A stretch of DNA of 64,000 bases from a virus. Under the pieces are notes generated by a model that was given only the letters and a program-made list of their open reading frames with translations, searched no databases and was not told the origin of the DNA. How positions within the stretch are numbered: the stretch's first letter is position 1; the number at the start of each line of letters is the position of its first letter. A program made the translations under genes and the position numbers. The stretch covers positions 1-64,000 of IMG/VR virus record IMGVR_UViG_3300035182_000826. One strand, written 5' to 3'. Of this stretch, positions 8,572 through 61,100 are shown one piece after another.

Positions 8572-8730
8572 TTAAGCGGCCGGGCATAGCCTCGGCGACA
8601 CCAGGCGACGCCGGCTCACCTCAGACATAACGGCCAATAAGTTATGCGCAAACGATAAAGGGCACCGGTTGGTGCCCTTTATTTGCGTAGTGCCTCGAGC
8701 TATTCAACCCGCTATTCGTCGGCTAATGCG
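8572..8730 (+). repeat. Outlying, degenerate copy of the palindrome plus 32-bp repeat family
   Basis: ttaagcg...cctcggcgacaccaggcgacgccggctcacc...caataagttatgc, then ttcaacccgctattcgtcggctaatgcg at 8703; matches units at 22.6-24.5 kb and 50.3-50.5 kb. Confidence 0.85.
8655..8682. terminator. Probable bidirectional intrinsic terminator
   Basis: ataaagggcacc-ggtt-ggtgccctttat hairpin between convergent genes. Confidence 0.7.
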
Positions 8731-8823
8731 TATAACGCGTGCTCACACCAGATCTTACTGAACTTAACTTTCTTACTTCCATCTTCTGAGGTAACGCCTG
8801 CCTTCATGGAAGCAATCATGTCA

Positions 8824-9438
8824 TCAGTAATGTCTCTGCATCTTTTGATTCAATCGAGCACGCAGCTTTCCAGCATACTCATGTGCTTGCGCATAGCCAA
8901 CCTTCGTGTCATCAAAGGTGCGCACGTAGTCTCTTCCGTTCTTCTCATCTTCAAGAGCTACAGAGATCCGCTTATCATCATCAAGTGAAAGCACGATTGC
9001 CTTGGTCTCATCACCGTCATCACCGTAGGCAATGAGTGCTTTTCCACTTGCTGGGTGTTCAGCACCTTGGAAGGCCATGAAGTCATGCCTGTTCATTGGT
9101 TTGAAATCATCGAACATTGGCTTCTCGAGACCCTCTTGCATGCCTCTAATCCAATCAAGCTCAGCTGCACGACCTTGAGATGCCTGAGAGCGCATCGTGA
9201 CCTTGCCACGTTCCTTCTCCCATTGCTCCTCGTCTTCAATCCTCTTCTTTGCATTTTTGAAGATTGCATCCTTTTTCTTTTGTTCTTCCTTGCGCTTTGC
9301 AAGCAACGCCTCACGTTCAGCCTTCAGCTTCTCGATCTTTTCGCTGTTTCTGAAGATGCCGAAAATTTCATCGACACGTTCTTCTGTTAGGTCATCGGTC
9401 TCAACGAAGTCGTTGAACTGTTTGAAAGAGATTTTCAT
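8824..9438 (-). CDS. Hypothetical late protein, possible internal head protein
   Basis: 204 aa, highly charged; MKISFKQF N-terminus with several hydrophobic-x-E sites; TAAATA upstream on the minus strand. Confidence 0.6.
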   Translation of the reverse strand: MKISFKQFNDFVETDDLTEERVDEIFGIFRNSEKIEKLKAEREALLAKRKEEQKKKDAIFKNAKKRIEDEEQWEKERGKVTMRSQASQGRAAELDWIRGMQEGLEKPMFDDFKPMNRHDFMAFQGAEHPASGKALIAYGDDGDETKAIVLSLDDDKRISVALEDEKNGRDYVRTFDDTKVGYAQAHEYAGKLRARLNQKMQRHY

Positions 9439-22030: not shown

Positions 22031-22269
22031 GTGATGAGCGCGTCCAAATGAGTGATCTTCCACATATCCCAGAACCGCATGATCTTGAGGACATTCGTTG
22101 GGGATACGACTCAGACGACATGGTGAACTACGGTAGCGACTGCTTTGAGGCTGGTCGCCAGATTGAACGAGCGAAGATCAGAATTGCGGAACTTGCGCTT
22201 AAGAAGCTCATGGATGAAAGAACCAGCATTGAGCATCATGTTCAAGCTATTCTGGATATGTTGAAATGA
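22027..22269 (+). CDS. Hypothetical protein
   Basis: 80 aa; ATGA overlap. Confidence 0.55.
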   Translation: MSDERVQMSDLPHIPEPHDLEDIRWGYDSDDMVNYGSDCFEAGRQIERAKIRIAELALKKLMDERTSIEHHVQAILDMLK

Positions 22270-22547
22270 GACTGCGAAATCTAATCCTGTGTTTCAAGGA
22301 TCAATTGCCGATCAGGCGTTTCATCAAAAATTTCTGCATCACACGGAATGCATGGGGTCTTTTTCACAAGAACTCACATGTGAGCCAGGGTTCTGGAAAG
22401 CCGAAGGTGATGTACAACACGAAGGCCACGGCTGAGAAGGCTGCGCTCTCCATGAAGAAGAAGCACGGCTACCACTACAGTCCGTACAAGTGCTTGTGGT
22501 GCGATGGTTACCACATTGGTCGAAACAGAAGCAATAAGAGCCATTGA
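22266..22547 (+). CDS. Small basic protein with YxCxxCxGxH zinc-binding motif
   Basis: KVMYNTKATAEKAA...SPYKCLWCDGYHIG. Confidence 0.65.
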   Translation: MRLRNLILCFKDQLPIRRFIKNFCITRNAWGLFHKNSHVSQGSGKPKVMYNTKATAEKAALSMKKKHGYHYSPYKCLWCDGYHIGRNRSNKSH

Positions 22548-22704
22548 GCTAAGTCAATGTTCTAGTTCACTAGATGAGCTGGTTCAAATGGCCATTTACA
22601 AAACAGCGCACATGTTTTGAGGGCACATAGAGCATCACCTCGGCGACACCGGTGAGGTCCAGCTCACACCGGCAGGCGCGAGCAATAAGTTATACACAGT
22701 CATT

Positions 22705-22732
22705 AAGGGGCACCCAACCGGTGCCCCTTTTT
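22705..22732 (+). terminator. Intrinsic terminator at the array's left edge
   Basis: aaggggcacc-caacc-ggtgccccttttt. Confidence 0.7.
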
Positions 22733-24034
22733 CGCATTGAACCCGCTGGCGAGCACTGTGAGCAGCTGATCACCTCTCCAATGAAGAACCTATTGAACTC
22801 CGGCTTCACGGCAAATCTGATGATGTTGAACCCGCTATCTGTCGGCTAATGCGCTCTGTGTACGCCTCACCACTAAGAGCACCACCTAATTTGACACCTT
22901 TCTTAAGTGCAGCTCGCCTTAAGCGATAGAGCACAGCCTCGGCGACACCGGTGAGGCCCGGTGTGAGCCGGACGGTGCGGGCAATAAGTTATGCATAGCA
23001 CTTGGCCGGTGTGAGCCGGCGTCGCCTCGTGTCGCCGGCTCACGTTGAACCCGCTATTCGTCGGCTAATGCGCTCTGCGCACACGCCGCACCACAAAGAA
23101 CTGATCACCCACTCCAATGAAGACTGATCACCCACTCCAATGAAGAACTTGTTGAAGAACTTGTTGAAGAATCCATTGAACCCGCTATTCGTCGGCTAAT
23201 GCGCTCTACGCACGCCGCACTGTGTGAGCGACTGATCACCCACTCCAATGAAGAATCCATTGAACTGATCACCTACGAATCCATTGAACCCGCTATCTGT
23301 CGGCTAATGCGCTCTATGGGCACCACACAAACAAAGAACACCTTACCACTAAGATCAACACCTAATTTGGCGCCTTTCTTAAGTGCAGTTCGCCATAAGC
23401 GATAGAGCACACCCTCGGCGACACCGGTGAGGTCCAGCTCACACCGGGCCTCACCACCAATAAGTTATGCATAGCACTTGGCCGGTGTGAGCCGGCGTCG
23501 CCTCGTGTCGCCGGATGATGTTGAACCCGCTATCTGTCGGCTAATGCGCTCTGCGCACACGCTGCACTGTGAGCAACTGGCCATCTCTCCAATGAAGAAC
23601 TTGTTGAAGAACCAATTGAAGAATCCATTGAACCCGCTATCTGTCGGCTAATGCGCTCTGCGCACACGCTGCACTGTGAGCAACTGGCCATCTCTCCAAT
23701 GAAGAACTTGTTGAAGAACCAATTGAAGAATCCATTGAACCCGCTATTCGTCGGCTAATGCGCTCTGTGTACGCAGCACCACTAAGAGCCCCTTCTAATT
23801 TGACACTTTCTCAAGTTCGGCACAAATGGCGGCCCACCTTAAGCGATAGAGCACAGCCTCGGCGACACCGGTGAGGTCCGGCTCACACCGGACAGTGCGG
23901 GCAATAAGTTATGCATAGCACATAGCTGGGGGTGAGCCGGCGTCGCCTCGTGTCGCCGGCCCGCGTTGAACCCGCTATTCGTCGGCTAATGCGCTCTGCG
24001 CACACGCCACACTGTGAGCAACTATGATCACCTC

Positions 24035-24121
24035 AATCCATTGGAAGAATCCATTGGAAGAATCCATTGGAAGAATCCATTGGAAGAATCCATTGGAAGA
24101 ATCCATTGGAAGAATCCATTG
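24035..24121. repeat. 13-bp tandem repeat (aatccattggaag) x6 plus a partial copy
   Basis: Six exact copies at 24035-24112. Confidence 0.95.
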
Positions 24122-24592
24122 AACCCGCTATCTGTCGGCTAATGCGCTCTATGGGCACGCGCTCTGTGAGCAACTATGATCACCTCAATCCAATGAAGAA
24201 CCCATTGAAGAACTGATCACCTCAATCCAATGAAGAATCCGTTGAACCCGCCGGCTAATGCGCTCTATGGGCACACACTGTGAGCAGGGTACCAAAGGAG
24301 TTCCTAGCACCACCACCTAATTTGACACTTTCTCAAGTGCGACACAAATGGCGGCCCGCCTTAAGCGATAGAGCACACCCTCGGCGACACCGGTGAGGTC
24401 CGGCTCACACCGGACCTCACCGGTAATAAGTTATGCATAGCACATAGCCGGTGTGAGCCGGCGTCGCCTCGTGTCGCCGGCCCGCGTTGAACCCGCTATT
24501 CGTCGGCTACTGTGCTGCGCTCTCACAATGACTTTTTTGGGATCTTGCTTCTTTGTAAATAAGAAACTTCAGTCAAGCAACGAACCAATCGT

Positions 24593-27500
24593 ATGGCAAA
24601 CAAGGACTACAAACTAGCTCATCGCGATCTCGTAAAATACATTCCAGAGCGCCTGAGAAATCTAGTGAACACCTCTCTGGTAGACAACCTGTTCAATAGA
24701 CACATGACTCACGATGAGTCTGTGCCATTGTTTGGTTATGTAGGACGTAAGCCAAGTTCTCCAGACGACACAACACCAGCGGTTCCACAAAACACGGTGT
24801 CTCGTGACGTGAATGCACTCATTCCAGTGTTCTCGTTTAAGAACGGTAAAGAGCTCATTGCCTTTACGGCGGAGGACGTTATTCGAAAAGCTGAGGTGTT
24901 GGGTGTTGATGCTGACCAAAGCACTTGGCTGTATTCACAGGCAAACAACTACGCGCCCCCAATTGACTTTGACAAGTTCACGAACTTCTTCAACTACTAC
25001 TGGGTTGGTCAGTCATTACCAAACTCTCCAATCCTGAGCTGGAATCCGACTATAGCGCCAGAGTACTATGTGATCGCTAAGCCAGCGATCACAGATCTTG
25101 ACAAGCTAAATGTTCGTTTAGGTACTACATCTCAAATCACCACGACTGGAACTGGTTTCTTGTCAATGACCTGGGTCGTGACGTTTACTGATGCATTGAA
25201 CTTCACTGTTCAAGCACAAGGTGCCGGTGCTGGACAGTTGCTTCCATCTGAGGTGACTCAGTCTTTCACTCTTCCAACGGTGACTGTTGAATCAACAAGT
25301 GTCTTCACTGTTGAGTTCACTGTAAGTCATCCACTACCACGAACACTGCTGTCATTCAAGATTCAGCGTGACCCAATCTATGATGGTGATGGGAACTGGA
25401 CAGGAAATGAAACTTTCACGGCTGGTGATACCTTCACCATTACTGCACCATTCATTTCATCGTCTTACACGTTGACGTCTGTCGTGTCAAGCGGTGTTAA
25501 GGGCAAGATCAACAACGTGAATTCACTAGACACCTTCCAAACCATTGATGGTGTGCAATTGGTTGTTGGTGACCGAGTCCTTGTTAAGAATCAAGGCGTC
25601 AGCGCTGAGAATGGCATCTACATTGTCGCAGCCGGTGCATGGACCCGCGCTGCCGATTTCGCTGATCCATCCACAACTCTTACTGGTTCACGAGTTTATG
25701 TGACTAGTGGATTAGTGAATGCTGGTGTATTGTTCATCTCATCAGACACCTATGAGTTCAATCCAGCTGGCACTCAGAACAACACAAATGATTGGCAAGA
25801 GCACAACTATTGGATGACGAGTGATGAGGCGGTAGCCGCCGGGTTTGATGTGTCTACACTTGTTCAGGCCACGCGTCCAATCATTGAGTTCTCTGCGAAC
25901 GTAAGACTGAACGGCTTTGTGCAGAACGGCGTTCCGTCTGACGCCGGCACCGCGTACACACAATACAAGACTGAGTTCAATCAAGTTCCGCTGTTTGATC
26001 TGTACAGATATGATGGAACCCATGCAAAGCTGGTCTCGCCGTTGTTCTTCTACGTTGAGGACCCGACAGCTGACATCGACCCAGCTCTTCAGCGCCGCAC
26101 AAAGATTTCATCCAATGGAAGCTCAGACTTTTTGTTCTCACATGGCTTTGAGGATGATAATGGAAACCTGCTGTTCTGCAAGTACAAGGATGGTTCACTG
26201 AAGACCATTTGGCATGCTGGTTATGACACCCCAACAATCTCGAACACGAGTTTTAACGGTAATGGAAATGGCACAATTTCAGTTCAGCCGAGCACAAATG
26301 CATTTGCTGCTCAACAGATCTGGACATTTACGGCAACTGGTCCAACGTCATTTACTGTTGTTGGTTCAAAGAACGCTGAGCTTCCAGTTCCTTATCAAAC
26401 TGCTACAGTTGGTACACAGTACGACAACACACTGATCAAGGCCTTGATCACTGCTGGCTCAACGCCATTTGAAGCTGGAGATGTGTTCACTGTTCAATTT
26501 GGCAATCTTGAAACTACAAGGTACGTTTACCGTTCAGCTGATGCAAGAAGCATGTTTGATCTTTTTGGCGGACCAACAGCTGACACTGAAGGAGTTGGCG
26601 CCTGGCTTACACCACGCATGTTCTACAACAACGTGGCTGCTGTGAACAACGGCGAGATTCCAGAAGGCACGATCTACTCACACTTTAGGGGAATTTTGGC
26701 AAATCAAGCGGCCGGTAATATTGACAACGCCTTCGGTGGATCAATCAAGCTCTGGGGTGAGCAAACAAATCTGCTCGTGTCGCTGTTGATGCAACGTGAT
26801 TTGACACCTATCTCAATGATTGATTTTGCACAGAATCAATATGAGGTAGCGCTGAACGCGATCATTGACATCTTCTGCCAAAAGTTCCCTTCGTACGTCA
26901 GCACAAACACAATCGACACAAGCTCACTGGTAAGCTACATTCTAGCAGTAAGAGCCGCTGATATGGATGTGAAGAAAGTGCTGTATGACACAACAGCCAG
27001 TGTCATTGGTTTCCCAGTCACCTTGCCTGCGATGGGGGTTACCCCATTAGCTGTGCCAGGATATGTTTTTGACAATGAACTGGGCGCTACCGTCTTCAGA
27101 CACCATGACGGGCATCTGAGCTCCATCTTTACGATGTCGCAGTCATTCCTTGACAGGATGGTGACAGCGAAGACCACTGTCCTACGTTCAGACGGCTCAA
27201 CAACTCCTGCATTTGGCTCATACACAACAACAATGCCAGCTTCACCATACCGTGGTGAGTTCTGGCTGTACCCACAGCAATCAGGTGTCCAGTTCCGAAT
27301 GTTCAACGTGCTTGGCGACACTTCAATTGCGCCAACACCTACAGCAACAGGTGATTTCTGGTATGACAGACCAAATGGAACTCTCTATGTTTGGGATGGC
27401 GTATCGTGGGCAACCACCACGAACATGTCTGCTGCATGGGTCTCAATTGACCCAGCAGACATGTTGAATGATGTCCTGCTTGAGATTGAAACGCGGCTGT

Positions 27501-30500
27501 ACAATGGGGTCAATGGTGAACAGCGGTCTTACTTCTCTGACACTGATGTCCAGGACGCGCTAACTGGAGATTTGAGCGCTGGATTGGCTCGTGAACTTAG
27601 TACATGGGCTGCGTTGTACGGGTACGATCAGTTTGGATCAGACTACGTGAGCACAGATCCGTTTACATGGAACTACTCAGGTCTGACAACTGCACAGTTC
27701 GCGCCCGTGAATAGAAGCACGGTGCCTGCACGGTGGTACAAGGCGCTTCAGGCACACCAAGCGACCGTGCCTGGTGTGATCCCAACATCTCGACCAAATC
27801 TTGAACCATGGAAGCTGCTTGGTTTTTCTTCAAAGCCAAGCACATGGGACGCAATGTACAGCAGTACTGTGACACCTGACATGGTGTCAGATTCACAATT
27901 GGTAGGTGCTGTCAAGGCGGTTCTTTATTCAGGAACACCGTTGTTCACTACCTTGAATGGTTCAATTACTGTTGATGGCGTATTGCTGACGGCTGGTGAT
28001 TACATCCTGCTTGTATCTGAGGCAGCTCCAGCAAACAACGGCGTTTGGGTGGTGTCAAATGGAGGCTGGTCACGTCCATTTATGCAACAGGCTGGTCATG
28101 TTCTTACCGTTTCAAGTGGCATTGATTACAGTGCTACCGCATGGGAAATCACAACAACCCAGTCAACACCATCAGATCCTGTTCTTGTTTCTCAAGTCAG
28201 ATACTGGACAGCTTCAATGTGGGCAGATATTCAGGCAGCGCGCCCAACATTGAAGCTGTCAGTTGATACGAACAGAGAAATTCTGCTACCGCCTTATGTT
28301 AACCCATCATTCAGCGCTTCGTTGAACGCATTGACGACAACACTTCCACCAACACCGGCGAAGGCCTATGTTTACGGTGAAGGCTCTCCTGTTGAAACGG
28401 TGTGGCAGAAGTCTATTGAGTTCAGGTACTCACTAGCAAGAGCATTGTTTAGAAAAGACCCACTAGCATTCATTGGAAACTGCTGGGGCTTTGAGTGGGT
28501 GAATGTTGATGGCATTCTCTATGACGGGTTTGACGTTTCGATGCCAGGCATTGCAAATGCGCGCTTCCATGGTGATACTGAGACAAGAACTAGAACGCCA
28601 ACCTTTAGCTTAACCGCCCTTTCAGGCCCATCAGCGATTTCATTGATAATTACACATGATGGCTACACGGCTGATCGTAAGTTCTCATTCTCAGTTAAGA
28701 CCTCAACTGGGCTGACACTTGGATACCTGCATGAGGGCGAAACTGGAACTATCTCTAGCAATGGATATGTCATCACCGCATCCATTGAAGACAATGGCGT
28801 TCCGTTCCATGTTGGTGATTCCTTTACTGTGACAGCCAATGCTGACGGATCAGGTCAACTCATCACCTTCAACAATTCGCTTTATGTCAAGTTCCTTGGC
28901 TTTGGGCAGATCTTTGCCCAGTGTCTGAGAAACACTTCAATTGACATGACACGAGGTTATGCGGTTTCAGCCATGAAGAACTGGGGTGTCAATGTTGGAT
29001 ACCGGGCGGGCGGTCTCGTGGCAACTGATGATCTGAAGGTCTTCACTGACAGCACTGAACTTCCTCCATCAGCGTACACACTGATCTTCAAAAAATCACC
29101 TTACGCATCTGACACCTGGCTACAGGCGCTGCGTGTCACTGTGAGCCAATTCGGTGCGCACAAGACAGCATCTAACGGATTCAAGGTGCCATCATCAGAT
29201 GCAAGTGACTGGGTGTTCAAAGTTCAAGGCTATAACAATCGCTATCTGACCGTGAAGTACTTCACATATGATCACTCAGCGGATGTGACATTCTTGGCGT
29301 TGAATGGCGCTCATACTTCACTGCCTTGGCTACACCCAACAGTGAAGACTGGAACTGTTAGTGCTGAGCTTCCATTGACAATCACTGGTTTGCAATCGCT
29401 CGTAGATTTCTTGTTTGGTTACTCAGAGTATCTAGAATCACAAGGCTGGGAATTTGACAACGCGCTCGAGCCAACAATTGATGCTGAGACAGGTCGTGCT
29501 AGAAACTGGCAACTTGAAATTGAAAAACTGGTTGATCGTGTTTACGCTGGCACAGCTCAAGACACTGGTCATTTGATGAACCCATTTATGGACAAGGTGT
29601 GGTTCAATCAAGACACTGGATTGATTTCAGAGTTCAGAGATACGGCACTGTTTGACATCATCTCAGATCCAGCTGTGTTTGACACACTCGGCGTAAAGAT
29701 GGACTCTTCAAACGTCACGGTGCTGCGTGGCCGTGAACAATCTACTATCATCTCGTCCGTGCCAATGTTCTCTGTGCACGCACAAACTGATGAGTACGAA
29801 CACCTGTTCATCTTCAACAACTATATTTCACCAAGCACCAATGAAGGACTGATTTACGATCCATTCACTGGATCACGTGTTGCCACGATGAAATTCAATG
29901 GGCGTCGCCAGGCAACTGACACACTACGCCCTGAATTTGGTGGTCACTATCTTATTGGCCATGAGGTCAAGGAAAACATCCAAGCCTCAACTGATAAGCT
30001 TCAGCACTACTATGACACGAATTACGTGTTCAGAGACAGAACGAGTACGCTACACGCGATGGAGCTGCTTGGCTTTACACCAAAGCAGTATCTTGCTGAT
30101 CTTGATCTGACTGATAAGTCACAGTTCGAGTTCTGGCGTGGGTTGATTCAGATGAAGGGTACGAACGCGTCTGTTGATGCGTTCTTGAACAACAACCGCT
30201 TTCAAGACGCTAAGCTTGATGAATACTGGGCATACAAGGTTGCTGAGTACGGGGATGCACGTACTAAGGTGTTCCCAGAGCTGAAGTTGTATGCCGAAGA
30301 TGCACTTCAACAGTTCACAAAGTTCAGATTTGTTTCGGCTTATGACAACGACTCATCAACTGCTACCTTCACACAGGTAATTCCATCTGATGAATCGCGG
30401 TGGTACTCAATTGACGATTTGAATAGCGACATGAGCTTCACACCAATGATCATTGGTGAATTTGTTCTTGCCGCAGATCCATCAGTTGTTTACAGCCCAA

Positions 30501-33274
30501 TGATCGAGCCGGGCATGGTTCAGGTGCCATTCTCCGCAGACAGAATCACTGTGACCCTTGATGGCGGTGACACCGGCTTCACTGTGCTGAACAGCCGCAC
30601 GATCTTGGTGTCAACAGCAGGTGAGCTTCGCGTCACTGGTTATGGCCCTGATGCATCGAAGTACAGCCCTGTGAAGGTCATCAATTACGTGGCGAAGGAA
30701 GTGACGGCCGACCTCCCTATGTGGAGCCCAGCAATGAACTTCCATACACCAACAGCCATGGAAAGCGTGAACATCATCGCTGACACTGACCCTGCCCGCT
30801 ATAATCAATCCACACTCGTGAGCGGCAACGCGAACTATGATCCATTGCGAGCATGGGGCGCGAAGCAGGTCGGCCGCATTTGGTGGGACACTACCAATCT
30901 TGATTATGTGCCATATCATGACAGTACCATCTTCGGGTCCATTGATGAGAGACTGAACCGCTGGGGTGCGCTTGCTGACTACGCCGCAAATCACATTGTT
31001 GAATGGGTGCAGAGCACAGTGCCACCAGCTGAATATGACGCACAAGCAGCAACTGACGCCGGTAACTCAGACATCGACCCAGCCTCAAGAGCTGATGGCA
31101 CCCCATATGACAAGAAAGTCTACTCACGTACCAGAGAATGGATGATCAGACCGATTGCCTGGAGCCAGGCGGCTTCACCAACAGTTTCCGCTCATACTGG
31201 CGGTACGATTGGCAGCAGAGGTTCTTTCCTGTCTCAGTCATCAGACACTACCTTGTTCTTCATCATTAGCTCAAACATGGTAGCGCTTGACAATGAATCA
31301 TTCTCGGCTGACGTCGTTGTCGACACAAGAATTGGTTTGTTCAGCGACACCGCTGATTATCTTGGACCGGTGTCTGAGGCAAATGTGGTTTCACTCACAA
31401 AGAACATCACGACTGAATTGACACCGAATGCGCTTCAGAACATTGCTGATGTGAGTGGGTTCTCGTTCACTGTCACACCATCATCCTACAATGAGATGGT
31501 TTATGGGCAAGTACAACCGTCGATGTCGTACTCCATCAGCCAAGGTAGCGCAACTGATGGCACACTGATCAATGAGTGGACTGTGAGCTCATATCTAACT
31601 CTAACGGTGAATGGAATCTCAAGCACTGTCTTGATCAGATCTGATGTTGGTACATCGACATCTGGAACCACTCATAATGCGTCATTCTCAGTCCAGGTCG
31701 GTGATGCATTCTCATTCACATTCGCTGAACTTGGGCTAACGATTGTCGCAACTGCAACAATGGCTGGTACACATGACACTTTGGTTCTTGCGCAAGCCAT
31801 TGACACGGCTGCTGCAACACTGAACGTGTTTGATGCTCGTGAAATCACATTCCTAGTGCCAAACCCACAAGGCATTTCATCAGCTTCTAATGACCCTGAC
31901 AGTGCGTTGACCTACGGCTGGAGAGCTTGGAATGTGCCAACACAAGCGGAACTTGATGCTGATAGCAAGTACCCTAACTGTGAATGGTACCCAATGACTG
32001 GTGAGTTCGTTTCATTCACTCCATCAAATGCTGACATCAAGGAGGCAGTAGCCGCCCAATTGACTCTGAACAACGGAACTGTGATTGACCGTTATTCAAC
32101 AACATGGGGTGATTGGACAGTTCACACTGACAAGTACTTCAAGACTGTCGCTACCTCATCAACAGCTGATGTTGACATTGGTGAAATCGTTCATGCAAGC
32201 CGAGTAGCTGTATACGTGAACGGTGTTGCTCAACTATCAAGTACTTTCACGATCAGTGGTTCCGTAGTGTCAATCTCTACTTTGTCAACTGGTGATTACA
32301 TCACTGTAATCCTCAGAGCGTATTCACCAACTGCTGATGAGCTAAGTTTTGACCCAACTGTTGAAGATGACTTGACGGTTCAAGAACAGTACAAAGAGGA
32401 TTACCAGTATGTGTCAGTGCCTGTTCGGTCAGCCGATGACGGCACTATCACGAGTACGTTGTACTATTTCTGGGTAACTGGAAGATCTGTTGCGGCAAGT
32501 GGTAAGACGCTCTCAACAAAGGCAATTACCTCATTGTTGACCAATGGCCCATCTACCTACATGACTTTGCAACACTTAACTCCTGATTCTGATTTGCCAA
32601 CAGGCACAGTTCTGTCAAGCCCAGTCTATGACTCAATTGCCTTGTCTGGTCTGTCATACTTGGTGACCAAGGACAGCACGTTCAAGCTTCGGTTGATGAA
32701 TGACAATACACTGCGTGATGATCCAGAGGGGTTGAACCTCAAGGACACACATGCTGAGTGGACACTCATTAGACCTGGTCAACGCACAAGAATCCCAGAG
32801 GCTCTTTGGAACAAGTTAACTGACACTGCATGTGGTGCTGATGTTGCGGGAAATCCATTGCCTGCTCCAGAGCGCGTTGCCTATGACGAGCGGAATGGAA
32901 CACGTACGCAGTACGGTTTTGGCAGCGATCAAATCCTTGCTCCTTCAGATTTGGTCACTTCGACTATCCTGTACACGATTCTAAATACCACGGTTGTAGA
33001 TGATTCTGATGACACGGCGGCGCCATATTACATTCAGTTCCTTGACTTTAATGAGAGCGATACGTGGTTTGCTACAGCAGAAAGTACACGAAATATTCTC
33101 ACGAGAATCTGGAATGAAGCTGAGGTTTCGCAAGTGAATGAAATTTTCTTTGCAGTGCTGAATGATATTTGCGCCGCAAACTATGAACTCACGGATTTGT
33201 TCAAGACATCTCGACTAAGTGCGTATTCTGTGAAGGTGATGAACTCATCACCTGTGCAGCCAACTTATGAGTAA
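24593..33274 (+). CDS. Giant virion/baseplate structural protein (2893 aa)
   Basis: TAAATA at 24556. LFGYVGRK, PIDFDKFTNFFNYYW and FWRGLIQMKGT...DEYWAYKVAEYG resemble large wedge-type proteins of big myophages. Contains two collar-like GDRVLV modules. Confidence 0.7.
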   Translation: MANKDYKLAHRDLVKYIPERLRNLVNTSLVDNLFNRHMTHDESVPLFGYVGRKPSSPDDTTPAVPQNTVSRDVNALIPVFSFKNGKELIAFTAEDVIRKAEVLGVDADQSTWLYSQANNYAPPIDFDKFTNFFNYYWVGQSLPNSPILSWNPTIAPEYYVIAKPAITDLDKLNVRLGTTSQITTTGTGFLSMTWVVTFTDALNFTVQAQGAGAGQLLPSEVTQSFTLPTVTVESTSVFTVEFTVSHPLPRTLLSFKIQRDPIYDGDGNWTGNETFTAGDTFTITAPFISSSYTLTSVVSSGVKGKINNVNSLDTFQTIDGVQLVVGDRVLVKNQGVSAENGIYIVAAGAWTRAADFADPSTTLTGSRVYVTSGLVNAGVLFISSDTYEFNPAGTQNNTNDWQEHNYWMTSDEAVAAGFDVSTLVQATRPIIEFSANVRLNGFVQNGVPSDAGTAYTQYKTEFNQVPLFDLYRYDGTHAKLVSPLFFYVEDPTADIDPALQRRTKISSNGSSDFLFSHGFEDDNGNLLFCKYKDGSLKTIWHAGYDTPTISNTSFNGNGNGTISVQPSTNAFAAQQIWTFTATGPTSFTVVGSKNAELPVPYQTATVGTQYDNTLIKALITAGSTPFEAGDVFTVQFGNLETTRYVYRSADARSMFDLFGGPTADTEGVGAWLTPRMFYNNVAAVNNGEIPEGTIYSHFRGILANQAAGNIDNAFGGSIKLWGEQTNLLVSLLMQRDLTPISMIDFAQNQYEVALNAIIDIFCQKFPSYVSTNTIDTSSLVSYILAVRAADMDVKKVLYDTTASVIGFPVTLPAMGVTPLAVPGYVFDNELGATVFRHHDGHLSSIFTMSQSFLDRMVTAKTTVLRSDGSTTPAFGSYTTTMPASPYRGEFWLYPQQSGVQFRMFNVLGDTSIAPTPTATGDFWYDRPNGTLYVWDGVSWATTTNMSAAWVSIDPADMLNDVLLEIETRLYNGVNGEQRSYFSDTDVQDALTGDLSAGLARELSTWAALYGYDQFGSDYVSTDPFTWNYSGLTTAQFAPVNRSTVPARWYKALQAHQATVPGVIPTSRPNLEPWKLLGFSSKPSTWDAMYSSTVTPDMVSDSQLVGAVKAVLYSGTPLFTTLNGSITVDGVLLTAGDYILLVSEAAPANNGVWVVSNGGWSRPFMQQAGHVLTVSSGIDYSATAWEITTTQSTPSDPVLVSQVRYWTASMWADIQAARPTLKLSVDTNREILLPPYVNPSFSASLNALTTTLPPTPAKAYVYGEGSPVETVWQKSIEFRYSLARALFRKDPLAFIGNCWGFEWVNVDGILYDGFDVSMPGIANARFHGDTETRTRTPTFSLTALSGPSAISLIITHDGYTADRKFSFSVKTSTGLTLGYLHEGETGTISSNGYVITASIEDNGVPFHVGDSFTVTANADGSGQLITFNNSLYVKFLGFGQIFAQCLRNTSIDMTRGYAVSAMKNWGVNVGYRAGGLVATDDLKVFTDSTELPPSAYTLIFKKSPYASDTWLQALRVTVSQFGAHKTASNGFKVPSSDASDWVFKVQGYNNRYLTVKYFTYDHSADVTFLALNGAHTSLPWLHPTVKTGTVSAELPLTITGLQSLVDFLFGYSEYLESQGWEFDNALEPTIDAETGRARNWQLEIEKLVDRVYAGTAQDTGHLMNPFMDKVWFNQDTGLISEFRDTALFDIISDPAVFDTLGVKMDSSNVTVLRGREQSTIISSVPMFSVHAQTDEYEHLFIFNNYISPSTNEGLIYDPFTGSRVATMKFNGRRQATDTLRPEFGGHYLIGHEVKENIQASTDKLQHYYDTNYVFRDRTSTLHAMELLGFTPKQYLADLDLTDKSQFEFWRGLIQMKGTNASVDAFLNNNRFQDAKLDEYWAYKVAEYGDARTKVFPELKLYAEDALQQFTKFRFVSAYDNDSSTATFTQVIPSDESRWYSIDDLNSDMSFTPMIIGEFVLAADPSVVYSPMIEPGMVQVPFSADRITVTLDGGDTGFTVLNSRTILVSTAGELRVTGYGPDASKYSPVKVINYVAKEVTADLPMWSPAMNFHTPTAMESVNIIADTDPARYNQSTLVSGNANYDPLRAWGAKQVGRIWWDTTNLDYVPYHDSTIFGSIDERLNRWGALADYAANHIVEWVQSTVPPAEYDAQAATDAGNSDIDPASRADGTPYDKKVYSRTREWMIRPIAWSQAASPTVSAHTGGTIGSRGSFLSQSSDTTLFFIISSNMVALDNESFSADVVVDTRIGLFSDTADYLGPVSEANVVSLTKNITTELTPNALQNIADVSGFSFTVTPSSYNEMVYGQVQPSMSYSISQGSATDGTLINEWTVSSYLTLTVNGISSTVLIRSDVGTSTSGTTHNASFSVQVGDAFSFTFAELGLTIVATATMAGTHDTLVLAQAIDTAAATLNVFDAREITFLVPNPQGISSASNDPDSALTYGWRAWNVPTQAELDADSKYPNCEWYPMTGEFVSFTPSNADIKEAVAAQLTLNNGTVIDRYSTTWGDWTVHTDKYFKTVATSSTADVDIGEIVHASRVAVYVNGVAQLSSTFTISGSVVSISTLSTGDYITVILRAYSPTADELSFDPTVEDDLTVQEQYKEDYQYVSVPVRSADDGTITSTLYYFWVTGRSVAASGKTLSTKAITSLLTNGPSTYMTLQHLTPDSDLPTGTVLSSPVYDSIALSGLSYLVTKDSTFKLRLMNDNTLRDDPEGLNLKDTHAEWTLIRPGQRTRIPEALWNKLTDTACGADVAGNPLPAPERVAYDERNGTRTQYGFGSDQILAPSDLVTSTILYTILNTTVVDDSDDTAAPYYIQFLDFNESDTWFATAESTRNILTRIWNEAEVSQVNEIFFAVLNDICAANYELTDLFKTSRLSAYSVKVMNSSPVQPTYE

Positions 33275-38291: not shown

Positions 38292-38906
38292 ATGAATCTG
38301 TACAAGTACCATGAGAAGCCAACATCACTGCTACACCATGGCATAGCTCATGACTCAGTTCCATTATTATTATGGGAGAAGTACAAGGGCAATAGGACAC
38401 AGCTGAAGAAACGAGAACACGTGATTGCTACAAGTGCAAAGTACTCGTATGAGTACGCGAAAGATGTCCTCAATGGCCCATTTCCGGCTGGCAAAGCCGT
38501 AATTGCAAGAGACTCATATTTTGCATACCTTTACGCAAGAGATGTTCTTCATGGCCCATTTCCGGCTGGCGAAGCCGCAATTGCGAAGGACACACAATAT
38601 GCCTACCTTTACGCAAGAGATGTCCTCAATGGCCCATTTCCGGCTGGCGAAGCCGTAATTGCGAAGGACACACAATTTGCCTATTATTATGCCAAGGATG
38701 TTCTAAAAGAACCATGGCCAAAGGGAGAGGACGCGATTGCGAAGACACCAGCATCTGCATACATGTACGCGAGAGCTGTCCTCAATGGCAGGTTTCCAAA
38801 AGGAGAAGCCGCAATTGCGAAGGACCCAAACTTAGCACATGTGTACGCAAGAGAAGTTCTCAATGCCGACTTCTATTATGATGGTAAGTTAGTTGGAAAT
38901 AAATAG
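38292..38906 (+). CDS. 25-aa tandem-repeat protein (paralogue of 58317-58697)
   Basis: About six repeats of AYLYARDVLNGPFPAGEAAIAKDTQ (75-bp DNA period); N-terminus MNLYKYH...WEKYK shared with 58317-58697. Confidence 0.85.
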   Translation: MNLYKYHEKPTSLLHHGIAHDSVPLLLWEKYKGNRTQLKKREHVIATSAKYSYEYAKDVLNGPFPAGKAVIARDSYFAYLYARDVLHGPFPAGEAAIAKDTQYAYLYARDVLNGPFPAGEAVIAKDTQFAYYYAKDVLKEPWPKGEDAIAKTPASAYMYARAVLNGRFPKGEAAIAKDPNLAHVYAREVLNADFYYDGKLVGNK

Positions 38907-41834: not shown

Positions 41835-44144
41835 ATGAAGATTAATGGCTCACTCGTATTTGACGCATCGGCCGCATCAGAAATCCAGAACCTACGCGTT
41901 CAGAAGGTTTCTTCACTGCCAACGTTCGACACAAACTCAGACCCTGGTCGTCTGGTCTATGTCACTGGCACCGCGTCTCTGTACTTTGGTACAGCATCAA
42001 GCTGGCTGGCTGTTGCAACAGGCGGTAACGCTGCTGCTCTGCAAACTGAAGTCGACAATCTCGAAACATCACTTGGCGCTATCGTTGATGGCTCTGGTAC
42101 TTTCGTGGTCGGCGCAGTTACTGGTCCAGCTTTCACCGGTTCAGAAGCATCAGTTACAGAGCTGTTGCAAGCACTCTCTAACTACGCGAACGCAAACAAT
42201 GAATTGTCAGAACTTGATGATGTCGCTATCACCTCAATCGCCAACAAGGATTTGCTGGAATTTAACAGTGTCTCTGGTAAGTGGGTGAACAAGGCAATCG
42301 GCTCGGCATCAGGCGTTCAGGCTTGGGACGCTGGCCTTGACAATCTGGCCGCGCTCGCTGGCACCGGTGTCGTCGTTGAAACTGCTGATGGTCAGTTCGC
42401 TAACCGTTCACTAGTTCCACCTGCAGCCGGTCTTACAATCACTAATCCAGACGGCGTCGCTGGTAACCCAACATTCGCCCTTGCTAATGATCTAGCTGCT
42501 CTCGAGGGTTTGACAACCACTGGTTATGTCATTCGCACAGGTGACGGTACTGCTACAACTCGTTCAATCACTGGTACTACTGGTGACATCGTTGTGACGA
42601 ACGGTAATGGTGTTGCATCTGACACAAGCATTGACTTGGCTGATGTGGTACAAGCCTCTTCTGGTAACTTTGTCAAGGTCACTCTTGATGGCAAGGGCCG
42701 TGTTGTTGGTAACACCGCAGTCGTTGCGTCTGACATCACTACTTTGGTTGACTCAACCTACGTAAATGTCGCTGGCGACACAATGAACACCAATGCTAAC
42801 TTGGTGTTCTCTGGTGCTGGTACTGTCAAGGGCATTCCACTACCAACGGCTGACACTGACGCTGCTAACAAGGCCTATGTTGATGCAATGTCCAATGGTC
42901 TGTCATGGAAGCAAGCCGTTCGTGCTGCTTCAACGGCAAACATTAACGTCGCTACTGGTGGTCTGCTTTCAGTTGACGGTGTTGCACTTGTTGCTGGTAA
43001 TCGCGTGTTGGTCAAGAACCAAACCGCTCCTGCTGAGAACGGCATCTATGTTGTTGCTGCTGGTGCATGGACCCGCGCAGCCGACATGAATGACGCTGCT
43101 GAATTCGACGGTGCTGCTGTCTTCGTTCAAGAAGGTACGACACAAGAGGGGTCTGGCTGGACTGAAACCGCCACTGTTACTACTGTTGGTACTGATGCAG
43201 TTGTATTCTCGCAGTTCACTGGTGGCGCACTTTACACATGGGGTGTTGGTCTAAGCAACACAGGTAACACCATCAACGTGAACGTTGGTGCTGGTATCAC
43301 TGAACTCCCAACTGACGAAGTTGGTATTGACTTGTACGATTCCGCTAACAGCGCACTGATTCTGACTTCTGACGGTACAACCCGCACTACGAACTCAGCT
43401 GGTCAGCTGCACCTCTTGCTTGATGCAGCTGGTGCCCTTGCACAAACTTCAGCTGGCTTGAAGATCAGCAATGCTTCTGTCACGAATGCAATGCTCATGA
43501 ATGATCACGTCGGTCTGAATGGTGACGCTGGCACATCAACACTTGCGCTTGGTCAAACACTCCAAGTTAAGGGTGATTCAGTGCAAGGTGTTGCAACATC
43601 AGTAGCAGGTCAAAACGTTACGGTCACTGCAGTTGATGCAACTTACACTCAGAAGGGTGTCGCATCATTCAACGCTGACTTCTTCAGCGTTACTGCTGGT
43701 GTCGTCAGCCTTGCCGCAACCTTGGATGATCTAACCAATGTTTCAACTGCTGATGCAGCTGCAACTGGTTCTCTCCTGCAGAAGAGCGCAACTGACTGGG
43801 TCTCTGTTTCTCCAGCAACAGTGTTGAACGGCACATCGATCGATAATCTCGGTGATGTTACTTCAACCTCCCCAACTGCTGGTCAAACACTGGTTTACAG
43901 CCCAACGTCTTCAACCTATACCAACAGAAGCATCTACTTCCTGTATAACGGTTCAACGGCGGCTACAACCCACACCGTGACTCACAACCTTGGCCAGAAG
44001 TACTGCAACGTGACGGTTGTTGACGCTTCTGATGAAGTTGTGATTCCACAATCGATCACTTACGATAGCGCGAACGGTCTGACCGTGGTATTCAACACGT
44101 CGATCGCTTGCAAGGTGATTGTCATGGGTGTTAACCTGGCGTAA
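41835..44144 (+). CDS. Tail fibre-like protein
   Basis: DAANKAYVD, the collar-like module (GNRVLVKNQ...ENGIY...WTRAAD), L.DL.DV fibre repeats and a C-terminal THNLG module; related to the 2-3196 protein. Confidence 0.8.
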   Translation: MKINGSLVFDASAASEIQNLRVQKVSSLPTFDTNSDPGRLVYVTGTASLYFGTASSWLAVATGGNAAALQTEVDNLETSLGAIVDGSGTFVVGAVTGPAFTGSEASVTELLQALSNYANANNELSELDDVAITSIANKDLLEFNSVSGKWVNKAIGSASGVQAWDAGLDNLAALAGTGVVVETADGQFANRSLVPPAAGLTITNPDGVAGNPTFALANDLAALEGLTTTGYVIRTGDGTATTRSITGTTGDIVVTNGNGVASDTSIDLADVVQASSGNFVKVTLDGKGRVVGNTAVVASDITTLVDSTYVNVAGDTMNTNANLVFSGAGTVKGIPLPTADTDAANKAYVDAMSNGLSWKQAVRAASTANINVATGGLLSVDGVALVAGNRVLVKNQTAPAENGIYVVAAGAWTRAADMNDAAEFDGAAVFVQEGTTQEGSGWTETATVTTVGTDAVVFSQFTGGALYTWGVGLSNTGNTINVNVGAGITELPTDEVGIDLYDSANSALILTSDGTTRTTNSAGQLHLLLDAAGALAQTSAGLKISNASVTNAMLMNDHVGLNGDAGTSTLALGQTLQVKGDSVQGVATSVAGQNVTVTAVDATYTQKGVASFNADFFSVTAGVVSLAATLDDLTNVSTADAAATGSLLQKSATDWVSVSPATVLNGTSIDNLGDVTSTSPTAGQTLVYSPTSSTYTNRSIYFLYNGSTAATTHTVTHNLGQKYCNVTVVDASDEVVIPQSITYDSANGLTVVFNTSIACKVIVMGVNLA

Positions 44145-49191: not shown

Positions 49192-50115
49192 ATGCTGAAT
49201 GATCCTAAAACCTACACGTATTCACCACGGTATGCCGGTGGTGACGTGAAGTTGCTTACCAGATCTAGTCGTAGATCAAAGCTGCTGGCTGGTGGTACGT
49301 ACTTCAGGTCTGTTCAGCGTGGTGAGCTATCGAACTTGATTAGCTGTGCTGTGCTCGAGGACGGGAACACCGGCGTGTTCATTCAGGTTCATGATGTGTT
49401 GAACTCGGCTGAAATGGTGACTCTGACTGGATTGAGCGCTCAAGTTCAAGTGCTGAGTTTTGATAGACCATTTGATAATGGGTATGAGACAGGCGTCTTA
49501 ATTCAAAAGAGTGGTGGTGAGGTGCGCGCACACATAATACGCATTAGGTGGCAGATAGCGGGTTCAACACTCACGTTCACATCAGAGACCATCACTGATC
49601 TTGGAACTATTCAGCTAAAGCAGTTGAACACTATTGGTGGAGTGCGATTTACCTTGTCAAACACCGCCTGGTCAGATGGTGACTCGCTTATGATTCATGC
49701 AAGATCGCAGTACACCATGCTGTCACAAATCACCGTGCAGGTAACTGACCCAGTCACTTCTGTTGTTACGCCAGTGACAGGCTGGAATATTGGCGCGCTT
49801 AGATCAGCATTGGCTAATTCGGCTACCACATGGGTAAAGATGCCTTCGCGTGGAACGACACAGACGCCAGCAACACCAGAGGATGTGTTAGACACAGGGG
49901 TGGATGAAGTTGTTATGACGGCGTTTCAGAAGACGTACATGAACGGTGGAGATGGCTTGCCAGCATCTCCTGATCTTGTTCTGACTGGCCCTGAACGTGC
50001 GCTGATTCACTTGAACTATGCTGAGTTAGATGACGGCTCACTAGGTGAGCACAACAAGGTGTACGAGTGGGTGGGTGAGTCATCTGCAGCCGGCTCATGG
50101 CAGATCTATGCTTAA
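49192..50115 (+). CDS. Hypothetical protein (probably virion-associated)
   Basis: 307 aa; last gene of the + strand structural operon. Confidence 0.6.
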   Translation: MLNDPKTYTYSPRYAGGDVKLLTRSSRRSKLLAGGTYFRSVQRGELSNLISCAVLEDGNTGVFIQVHDVLNSAEMVTLTGLSAQVQVLSFDRPFDNGYETGVLIQKSGGEVRAHIIRIRWQIAGSTLTFTSETITDLGTIQLKQLNTIGGVRFTLSNTAWSDGDSLMIHARSQYTMLSQITVQVTDPVTSVVTPVTGWNIGALRSALANSATTWVKMPSRGTTQTPATPEDVLDTGVDEVVMTAFQKTYMNGGDGLPASPDLVLTGPERALIHLNYAELDDGSLGEHNKVYEWVGESSAAGSWQIYA

Positions 50116-50255
50116 CCGGGTGTCGCCGGCTCACACCAAAATGCTCACCTATAGAACTTTATGTATTTTGAGACCGGTGTGAGCCGGGCCTCACCGGTGT
50201 CGCCGAGGGTGTACCCCGCTTAAGGTCGCCAGTTTCTGAGAAGGTGGCGCTTAGG
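50116..50255 (-). repeat. Inverted, degenerate copy of the palindromic module
   Basis: ccggtgtgagccgggcctcaccggtgtcgccgagggtgtaccccgcttaagg (50174-50225) is the reverse complement of the left arm plus flank; partner arm gtcgccggctcacacc at ~50122. Confidence 0.85.
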
Positions 50256-50297
50256 AAGGAAGCACTGCGTTGCAGTTGCTTTATTGGCTGAACTGGC

Positions 50298-50540
50298 GTA
50301 CGCCTCACCACAAAGAACACCTTCTAATTTGACACCTTTAAGTGCGGCACAAATGGCGCCCCACCTTAAGCGATAGAGCACACCCTCGGCGACACCGGTG
50401 AGGTCCGGCTCACACCGGCTAAGTGCTGTGCATAACTTATTGGCTGACCTGTCTGGTTTGAGCCGGCGTCGCCTCGTGTCGCCGGATGATGTTGAACCCG
50501 CTATCTGTCGGCTAATGCGCTCTATGGGCACGCACTGTGA
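50298..50540 (+). repeat. Complete outlying unit of the array
   Basis: ctaatttgacac...ccttaagcgatagagcac flank, 98-bp palindrome at 50387-50484 and 32-bp repeat at 50492. Confidence 0.95.
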
Positions 50541-50557
50541 ATGAAGATCGTGCAAAT

Positions 50558-50707
50558 TCGTTTCTTTGCCTTTGCAATCAACTTACCATCGTGGTAGAAG
50601 TCAGGTTGCGTAGGCCTGGTTGGACGCGGCCTCACCTTTTGATCAAGGACCGATGATGCAATTGTCACTTCACCTTTAGGAAATGGCCGGACATCTTTGT
50701 AGAGATT
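50558..50707 (-). pseudogene. Collapsed remnant of the 25-aa-repeat gene family
   Basis: The minus strand reads NLYKDVRPFPKGEVTIA...PDFYHDGKLI with no start codon, matching MNLYK, GPFPKGEDTIA and DFYYDGKLV of the two intact paralogues. Confidence 0.7.
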
Positions 50708-60501: not shown

Positions 60502-60635
60502 TGCACTTTTCTTAAGGGTGACCTCATATTTAGCCAGCAGTGAAGTTCGTCGATTTGATCCTGAGAGCCCCAGTCTTGTGCTGCATAACCCAAATACAAT
60601 ACCTATTAGAGCCGTTTCTTCACCTAGGTAGTTCA

Positions 60636-61100
60636 ATGACGGCACCCAAAAAAGTTAAACCAGCAAAACGTGAGCGCTCAACATCAACAAAGGGGCATTA
60701 CGTTGACAACAAAGATCTTTTAGCAGCATTCCTTGAGGCAAGGGAAAAGGGCGTTCTTACTGATCGCCTTGCAAAGTACTTGATGCTCATTGCAGAGCGG
60801 TACTCATATCACCCTTGGTTCGCATCATTTTCATGGCGTGAAGACATGGTGGCGACAGCTGTGTTGAACCTCTGTTCGAATTGGCACAAGTTTGATCCGA
60901 CTAAGAGTGACAGTCCGAATCCGTTCTCATACTACAGCACTGCTGTTTACCGCAGTTTTCTCTCATATCTTGACACTGAGCGTGGTGAGCGAAAGGTCAA
61001 GGACCTGTTGCTGATTGCTGCTGGAGCAAATCCCTCATTCAATTTTGATGGTGGCATGTCGTCTGATGATTCGGCCTTTTCGAGTAGAAGTGACGAATAA
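60636..61100 (+). CDS. Late-transcription sigma factor (gp55-like)
   Basis: HYVDNKDLL...LIAE..S....F....WREDM......FDP.KS..PNPFSY.....RSF...E; sits before gp47/gp46 as in T4. Confidence 0.85.
   Translation: MTAPKKVKPAKRERSTSTKGHYVDNKDLLAAFLEAREKGVLTDRLAKYLMLIAERYSYHPWFASFSWREDMVATAVLNLCSNWHKFDPTKSDSPNPFSYYSTAVYRSFLSYLDTERGERKVKDLLLIAAGANPSFNFDGGMSSDDSAFSSRSDE

Follow-up and report, generated by a model that had tools for sequence, protein, structure and literature searches.

Dispersed palindrome-bearing repeat arrays of an uncultured T4-like jumbo phage as candidate terminator/promoter cassettes

Analysis of the first 64,000 nucleotides (the window) of the IMG/VR virus record IMGVR_UViG_3300035182_000826, a 161-kb record that is estimated to be 45% complete and is called G000 in our genome comparisons, revealed a repeat array at 22624-24516 whose pattern lies far beyond chance. 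Each of its 4.5 units joins a conserved flank (F), a large palindrome (P) and a set of 32-mers (D), and elements of the same kind recur across the record and in related phages. Their conservation in sequence indicates that the family is a real cis-element under constraint and not junk. We tentatively interpret the units as cassettes in which a terminator or insulator would be coupled to a factor-dependent promoter, in the manner of the promoter-early stem-loop (PeSL) elements of T4-type phages, and which homologous recombination may have amplified and shuffled into stacks devoid of open reading frames (ORFs).

Direct reading, Tandem Repeats Finder (TRF) and a repeat search agree on the position of the array, and the latter two place its higher-order units 476, 444 and 522 bp apart, as anticipated by the original prediction, which a model had made from the letters of this DNA and which spoke of units of 444-522 bp. 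Within a unit the order is F (CTAATTTGACAC...CTTAAGCGATAGAGCAC), then P (98-99 nt), then approximately three copies of D, whose consensus is TTGAACCCGCTATyyGTCGGCTAATGCGCTCT, with 12/13-bp linkers in between. Four palindromes were mapped, with arms of 72-78% GC and loops of 41-50%, and all four contain the predicted loop motif AATAAGTTATGCATAGCAC. The arms had been described as failing to match over a central block of 9 bp; five pairs, one of them G.U, nevertheless form there on the + strand. Similarly, the claim of three 32-mers per unit holds for units 1 and 2, whereas unit 3 has two plus a copy with a 7-nt deletion (24242-24266), and truncated 32-mers are found at both ends of the array (22737 and 24487). 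The first 32-mer lies at a constant 107-108 nt from the start of the arm, counted from CTCGGC, which is equivalent to the 105-106 bp of the original prediction; this distance is also kept in the copy at 50.4 kb, as predicted, and at three loci outside the window. The linkers are tandem motifs of 12, 13 and 23 bp and, as had been noticed earlier for those of 12-13 bp, vary in copy number (for example, a 13-mer is repeated 6.7 times at 24035-24121 according to TRF). Additionally, TRF and the repeat search detected a 107-bp unit repeated at 98-100% identity, 12-mers and a 23-mer present twice. The 32-mers are spaced 107-153 bp apart, and a CRISPR array was rejected because the 'spacers' between the repeats are themselves repeated modules of 75-121 bp and not unique sequences. 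The array sits between a gene for 93 amino acids (22266-22547) and a gene for a virion protein of 2893 amino acids (24593-33274), hereafter the giant gene. Its longest stop-free run is 94 codons and the unit spacings are not all multiples of three, in keeping with the non-coding character attributed to it at the outset.

This array is one member of a larger family. It had been paired in the original prediction with a single distant copy near 50 kb; both exist, but the family comprises six loci with the F-P-D-D-D syntax as well as solo cassettes and pieces, amounting to 5.4 kb or 3.4% of the record (Table 1). A search of the whole record with the 13-nt core of D, allowing up to two mismatches, returned 30 matches, 29 of them with CTAATGC, against three for the reversed control. 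Because the solo cassette at 8590-8740 and the incomplete unit that opens the array (unit 0) carry a terminator where the right arm stands elsewhere, we read the 98-nt palindrome as a variant of a cassette made of arm, centre, hairpin and D, in which an inverted second arm appears to replace the terminator. The hexamer after the D core is TATAAC in the solo copy versus TCTAYG or TCTGCG in the array copies. At the 50-kb locus, an ORF of 111 amino acids at 50220-50555 (- strand) lies wholly within the repeat unit and is most likely spurious.

How widely are these modules conserved? Relatives were represented by eighteen fetched loci encoding the giant protein at 44-58% amino-acid identity. The D core CTATyyGTCrGCTAATGC is present in related jumbo phages at about one copy per 30 kb, mostly right after a hairpin or terminator, with 11 copies in G001, 9 in G002, 8 in G004 and 4 in G005 (reversed controls, 0-1 each), and it was found in additional IMG/VR contigs of the clade. 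The flanks of D vary among genomes, and the invariant part is a block of only ~18 nt. TATAAT comes immediately after the terminal TGC of the core in G002 and G005, which creates an extended -10 of the TGnTATAAT type; in G002 the core stands directly behind a T-run hairpin scored as a terminator by the scanner, and in G003 a TATTTy hexamer occupies the place of the -10-like hexamer. The arm box, with the consensus GGCGACACnrGGCGAC, was found as GGCGACACGAGGCGAC 13 times in G001 and four times in G006 (controls 0), and in other contigs as well, and the inner CCGG-yTCAyy-CCGG element is likewise shared. From the box to the D core downstream of it, the distance is exactly 117 nt at four G001 loci, compared with 118-119 nt in this phage. 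Inspection of three of these G001 loci revealed that the interiors between box and D differ despite the fixed spacing and that two of them contain a terminator. The original prediction had named a lack of conservation in relatives, together with the lack of a binding, transcription or replication signal, as grounds for abandoning a cis-element; the D core and the arm box proved to be conserved at ~50% amino-acid identity, and the 117-119-nt geometry persists despite differing interiors.

The stacked arrangement recurs as well. G003 (44% identity, 42% GC) has a D variant peculiar to it, CTTATTTGTCACCTA...TATTTy, in 17 copies (controls 0) that are grouped in five ORF-less arrays of 3-4 units each, on both strands and with variable short tandem-repeat linkers (51.9-52.6, 60.7-61.4, 122.6-123.2, 153.6-154.5 and 182.6-183.3 kb). 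Because a second lineage carries five such arrays, arrays of approximately three D elements are a recurrent architecture and not the quirk of a single assembly. In the D-like arrays of this distant relative (G003; L024 4786-6000), strongly G/T-rich short tandem repeats (AGTC and GGTT runs) lie downstream of each unit. Furthermore, an intergenic motif, GTCGCC-N2-4-CGTTACA, is conserved in L013, L014, L022, L025 and L080, where it precedes the giant gene's late promoter by ~60-70 nt, and the motif ATGCTCTGCAC, similar to the loop motif as well as to the 3' half of D, occurs in these relatives. These sequences suggest a small vocabulary of modules common to the clade.

The setting of the cassettes is that of a phage with a T4-like core, including a gp55-type late sigma factor at 60540-61100 (+) (phrog_234, 1e-27), gp47/gp46 (SbcD/SbcC-like) genes at 61178-63957, baseplate wedge and hub genes and a family-B DNA polymerase. 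The palindrome-processing nuclease of the SbcD/SbcC type thus shares the genome with more than ten 98-nt palindromes. The sequence nnTAAATA occurs 20-35 nt upstream of 36 gene starts in the record (for example 24554-24561, 9465-, 38932+ and 54332-), and by its sequence we assign it to the T4-type late promoter class, matching the gp55-like sigma. In every relative TC(A/T)TAAATA precedes the giant gene at the same place. In this phage the giant gene has TGTAAATA at 24554 and, therefore, its own late promoter, upstream of which the array lies; D is found upstream of this promoter in G000, G001, G002 and G003. A k-mer search for a further recurrent promoter class returned only TAAATA and terminator stems (ATAACCC...GGGTTAT). 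The nearest isolate is the Ralstonia jumbo phage RsoM2USA (37% amino-acid identity), which was reported to be without an RNA polymerase (PMC8504454) and in which the D core matches only near control level. No T7-like phage RNA polymerase was found in our record either, in a search whose control was uninformative. In a comparison of phage DNA, the sole match was a 120-nt piece of the upstream 93-amino-acid gene to Caulobacter phiCbK-like phages, which are not relatives.

How might such a cassette operate? We envisage three parts: a GC-rich box arm with two GGCGACRC boxes 11 bp apart and a CCGG-N6-CCGG mini-palindrome; a closing hairpin, which is an intrinsic terminator in solo copies and relatives and an inverted second arm in array copies; and element D, with its 18-nt core followed by a -10-like hexamer. 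The hairpin would halt or insulate transcription arriving from the upstream operon, and host RNA polymerase would initiate at D. Because no phage RNA polymerase was found, we assume that a phage factor helps the host enzyme by reading the invariant D core and perhaps the boxes 117-119 nt upstream. D would then belong to a class of pre-late promoters that stand where T4-type late operons begin or end, and its transcripts may enter the adjacent late genes in either direction, sense or antisense, or may be non-coding. Stacks would grow by unequal homologous recombination among cassettes through the T4-like recombination machinery of the phage, conceivably to some benefit, and the cassettes may also serve as recombination hot-spots.

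Promoter function is supported by the -10-like hexamer right behind the core in G002, G003, G005 and the solo copies of G000, by the order of hairpin and then D, by the location at operon borders and by the reliance on host RNA polymerase. Two arrays of the record, A (the array of the window) and E, face late promoters in sense, and the solo D copies and the 50.5-kb unit face the 3' ends of late genes. The original prediction recognised no described phage element here. The closest is the T4-type PeSL terminator/promoter cassette, a repeated, dispersed intergenic composite in which a stable stem-loop is followed by a promoter element (PMC2839356, PMC4122927). The likeness extends to the T4-like core of the phage, perhaps to short homologies mediating indels and shuffling, and to the succession of hairpin, A/T-rich stretch and promoter, which is the same in G002 copies. 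With regard to the stem-loop, a hairpin is always present, and intrinsic terminators are found in the solo copies, in G001 and in G002. D nevertheless differs from its PeSL counterpart. PeSL promoters fit the sigma-70 consensus and D does not, its invariant part being a block of 18 nt that lies between the places where -35 and -10 elements normally stand. PeSLs are found beside ORFans and share the orientation of the genes, whereas the cassettes described here are stacked without ORFs and in either direction, and their hairpin is a compound palindrome of 98 nt whose conserved boxes are set at a constant distance. A looser parallel is offered by the early control region of T7, where the tandem promoters A1/A2/A3 lie ~100 bp apart and long, imperfect RNase III hairpins form in intergenic RNA. 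The triplet of elements at ~100 bp and the long imperfect hairpins are alike in the two systems, but the T7 region is a single one at the genome end, has consensus sigma-70 promoters and is not dispersed. In halovirus HF2, a large tailed virus, conserved intergenic repeats of 29-58 bp are promoters by reporter assay (PMC8707807); it is an archaeal virus with another promoter type, and its repeats make up neither palindromes nor arrays.

A number of observations weigh against a promoter cassette. D goes uncalled in two-hexamer sigma-70 scans of this phage and of G002, the -35 element is not conserved between genomes, the array copies have poor -10 hexamers, and the -10-like hexamer follows the core at an offset that differs by 0-4 nt from genome to genome. 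In relatives D is oriented towards the next gene about as often in sense (~15) as in antisense (14), and at two syntenic sites (L040 versus L049; L050 versus L038) it is inverted relative to the same orthologues, which is unusual for mRNA promoters. The palindromes of the array fold at approximately -60 kcal/mol and have no U-tract, and thus are not classical intrinsic terminators; no ORFs lie between the cassettes, whereas PeSLs flank ORFs; and L025 has the same rearranged junction as this phage without an array. Among other promoter types, the reverse complement of a G004 copy has what we take to be a 10-nt identity to the SP6 promoter. An SP6/T7-like promoter on the reverse strand of D was rejected, since transcription from it would run at once into the neighbouring terminator, and the search mentioned above found no T7-like polymerase. 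Judged by eye, sigma-54, DnaA-box, integration host factor (IHF) and extracytoplasmic-function (ECF) sigma readings of D do not fit.

The copies bear the footprints of recombination. Inversion of the 35-nt loop is seen in the copies at 50385 and 93234, those at 22958 and 122375 have the 6-nt core of their inner CCGG palindrome in flipped orientation, and sub-segments assort as mosaics among copies. The array unit at 121759-121872 matches 122980-123199 and is a copy of the solo D at 123174 (-) together with the sequence downstream of it, which is antisense to the 3' end of the gene at 122506-123153; 110 nt have been deleted internally from the copy, and 80 nt are retained at 90% identity and 31 nt at 100%. 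Gene order is affected too. In 14 of the 18 relatives the baseplate-wedge gene precedes the giant gene and has the same orientation, which is the ancestral adjacency; in this phage the wedge gene is inverted at 50707-54303, adjoining the 50-kb unit, and array A fills the broken junction. In comparison with G004, the 69.5-kb copy is likewise at a breakpoint. These coincidences suggest that the repeat loci are associated with breaks in synteny. A single inversion of the giant-gene block was rejected as a model, as the comparison with G004 requires more than one event.

Table 1. Location of the repeat family in the 161-kb record and of adjoining features
Feature	Position	Strand	Remarks
Unit 0	22627-22733	+	Box arm (CTCGGCGACACCGGTGAGG + CCAGCTCACACCGG), loop motif, intrinsic terminator hairpin + T-run (~22705-22733) instead of right arm
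D elements and linker modules	22737-22857	+	Truncated D (22737-22749), linker modules, full D 32-mer (22826-22857)
Flank module F	22883-22937	+	Other copies 23359-23413, 23792-23857, 24314-24379
Palindrome P1	22940-23037	+	Inner CCGG-N6-CCGG core flipped relative to other copies
Three D 32-mers	23045-23315	+	At 23045, 23176, 23284; linkers 23-bp x2 and 12-bp x2.6
Palindrome P2	23416-23513	+	
Three D 32-mers	23521-23766	+	At 23521, 23628, 23735; first two 107-bp D-units 100% identical
Palindrome P3	23860-23958	+	99 nt; RNA folding -63.2 kcal/mol on + strand (z -6.2), -55.5 on - strand
D elements and linker	23966-24266	+	D 32-mers at 23966, 24119; 7-nt-deleted D 24242-24266; 13-bp x6.7 linker 24035-24121
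Palindrome P4	24382-24479	+	Contains perfect 15-6-15 inner palindrome at 24389-24424
Last D	24487-24510	+	Diverged past core start (TTGAACCCGCTATTCGTCGGCTAC...)
T4-type late promoter	24554-24561	+	TGTAAATA, 32 nt ahead of giant gene ATG; outside repeat
Giant gene	24593-33274	+	Virion structural protein, 2893 aa (phrog_10938); downstream neighbour of array
Solo cassette	8590-8740	+	Double-box arm (8591-8622), loop motif CCAATAAGTTATGC, intrinsic terminator (8657-8684), D + TATAAC -10-like hexamer (8703-8736); faces 3' end of late gene 8824-9438 (-)
Inverted palindrome copy	50117-50207	-	Different A+T-rich centre; directly past stop of gene 49192-50115
Single F-P-D unit	50321-50523	+	P 50387-50484 with inverted loop, D 50492-50523; faces 3' end of baseplate-wedge gene 50707-54303 (-)
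Family locus (array A)	22.6-24.5 kb	+	
Family locus	50.3-50.5 kb	+	
Family locus	69.5 kb	+	F-P only
Family locus	92.4-93.6 kb	-	
Family locus	121.5-122.5 kb	+	
Family locus	156.2-156.7 kb	-	

Repeats of other kinds were encountered in coding sequences of the record. The virion proteins of 2893 (24593-33274) and 769 amino acids (41835-44144) share a domain of ~100 amino acids (phrog_2647/24595/27782, head decoration or tail fibre-like), and a 112-nt DNA repeat is common to 25545-25656 and 42973-43084. Coding tandem repeats of 78 bp (26 amino acids) are present at 38454-38865 in the ORF 38292-38906 and also at 70.2-70.9 and 76.0-77.2 kb, forming a multicopy family of repeat proteins.

Could the loci serve replication instead? 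It is possible, though unlikely, that they are replication origins or enhancers comparable to baculovirus hr sequences or to T4 origins, with the box arms binding an initiator or activator and D supplying either a site for clamp loading or a transcript that primes or activates. Multiple origins would then be spread over the genome, and the loci may also be entry points for the sliding clamp that switches on adjacent T4-type late promoters. The orientation of D is independent of that of the genes, the box-to-D spacing of 117-119 nt is fixed across lineages, inverted GC-rich boxes surround a centre of lower GC, late promoters stand next to the loci in both G000 and G003, and arrays recur in two lineages. 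The density of about one locus per 30 kb is similar to that in T4, which has at least 5 origins in 169 kb (PMC3016281). Moreover, a promoter-like element accompanied by short 12/13-bp direct repeats recalls T4 oriE, which consists of 12-nt repeats and an early promoter, while oriF and oriG combine a promoter with an unwinding element (PMC3016281); in T4, too, several origins exist per genome and a promoter-type element serves a purpose other than mRNA. On the other hand, the sequence downstream of D is not an A+T-rich unwinding element (46-52% GC versus 48% for the genome) and has no shared G-rich skew that would favour R-loops (+0.46 in G003, -0.24 in G000 and ~0 elsewhere). GC skew, an analysis recommended in the original prediction, follows gene orientation only and has no inflection at the arrays, and the centre of the G001 palindrome is a transcription terminator and not a melting region. 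An iteron-type origin, one of the candidates named at the outset, fares poorly on the same grounds, because 32-mers set 107-153 bp apart are too widely spaced for classical iterons, which are direct repeats of 17-22 bp lying close together, and neither an unwinding element nor a skew signal is present. T4 origins have no common motif, unlike these loci, which share a strict one. Because T4 origins are heterogeneous and can consist of a promoter with 12-nt repeats (PMC3016281), we regard a role as origins as weakened and yet keep it.

A related proposal, which we rate as somewhat more doubtful, takes the comparison with baculoviruses further. The homologous regions (hrs) of these viruses are scattered direct-repeat arrays in which every repeat contains an imperfect palindrome; they vary in copy number and are independent of gene orientation. 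An hr-like element was among the original suggestions, and the form agrees, in that the arrays are dispersed and palindrome-bearing; the function would follow by analogy only. Baculoviruses are eukaryotic viruses, and no relationship in sequence or protein (IE1) exists. By that analogy the D/box loci would be phage counterparts of hrs, orientation-independent nucleoprotein sites at which a conserved phage factor, recognising the 18-nt core and the GGCGACRC boxes at 117-119 nt, starts replication or loads the sliding clamp. If so, replication would be coupled to the activation of the adjacent T4-type late promoters, and tandem amplification, as in G000 and G003, would tune the strength of a site.

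We consider it improbable that the output of the loci is RNA as such, that is, short transcripts driven by D that act antisense to late-gene 3' ends or as a structured P RNA. The solo copies of D at 8717 (+) and 123174 (-), like the unit at 50492 (+), do face the 3' ends of genes with TAAATA promoters, a bidirectional terminator lies ~45-50 nt past three D copies in G001, the unit at 121759-121872 keeps 45+31 nt antisense to the gene at 122506-123153, and P folds better on the + than on the - strand. However, no Rfam family was matched at the gathering threshold (best relaxed match, E 0.26), a tRNA scan found nothing, and the stretch that would be transcribed from D shows no conservation from genome to genome. 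Covariation, a check proposed earlier for related phages, was assessed across the palindrome copies and yielded no compensatory change in 29 pairs, the copies being too alike, and the structured RNA of the original prediction finds no backing in these results. Among antisense targets in relatives, late promoters are enriched only weakly (3 of ~13 versus 15 of 120 in the background).

Comparably improbable is a selfish or neutral expansion, in which a single ancestral cassette was functional and the stack of 4.5 units is a by-product of slippage or unequal crossing-over without a function of its own. Some features are what such a process would produce: D-units of 107 bp that are 100% identical and perfect runs of 13-mers, indicative of very recent expansion, mosaic copies, and -10-like hexamers that are degenerate in the array relative to solo copies. 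Most relatives, moreover, have single cassettes, with one match per stretch. Against this, five arrays of 3-4 units are maintained independently in G003, a distant lineage, several loci of G000 retain about three D per unit, and 3.4% of a compact phage genome is spent on these loci.

It is very improbable that the loci are recombination sites or site-specific inversion switches of the inverton or lox type, in which the nested inverted repeats are recombinase targets and the loop is an invertible promoter fragment. Such a function would account for the loop being found in both orientations between 14-bp inverted repeats, for the flipped 6-nt core in two copies, for the perfect 15-6-15 palindrome in P4 and for the resemblance of the loop to the 3' half of D. 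Nevertheless, in assembled contigs, where heterogeneity does not show, the flips are seen between different loci and not within one locus, and an invertible segment of 35 bp is too short for intramolecular synapsis. Tyrosine recombinases, serine recombinases and Y1 transposases (PF00589, PF00239 and PF01797) are absent both from G000, at 45% completeness, and from the complete G001, which has the same arms; the controls were positive. The recombination site offered by the original prediction finds no support in this result.

Least credible is an assembly artefact through mis-collapse or mis-expansion of dispersed repeats in short-read data. We consulted public short-read contigs from four DNA runs, which came from four studies of sediment and microbial mat. 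These contigs end within the repeats and none spans the array, but both flanks run into it, several unique internal junction pieces are found at 100% identity in three or four independent runs, the same syntax is present at five other loci, and analogous arrays exist in the unrelated assembly of G003. The order of the units and their exact copy number rest on the original assembly.

What are the implications of these arrays for the biology of the clade? A compact phage genome spends ~3.4% of its DNA on gene-free arrays whose motifs are near-invariant among phages with ~50% identical proteins. For us the main interest lies in the clade-wide 18-nt signal, in the fixed 117-119-nt geometry and in the recurrence of arrays in two lineages. 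The elements add a second genome-wide cis-signal to the TAAATA late promoter of an uncultured clade of T4-like jumbo phages, and the motifs can be used as handles for DNA pull-downs, reporter assays and the annotation of genomes of the clade. The arrays also illustrate how regulatory cassettes can drive modular rearrangement. If D is a factor-dependent promoter, as we tentatively favour, it marks a new pre-late regulatory class together with its regulator; if the loci are instead origins or enhancers, they would be the first hr-like system in a phage.

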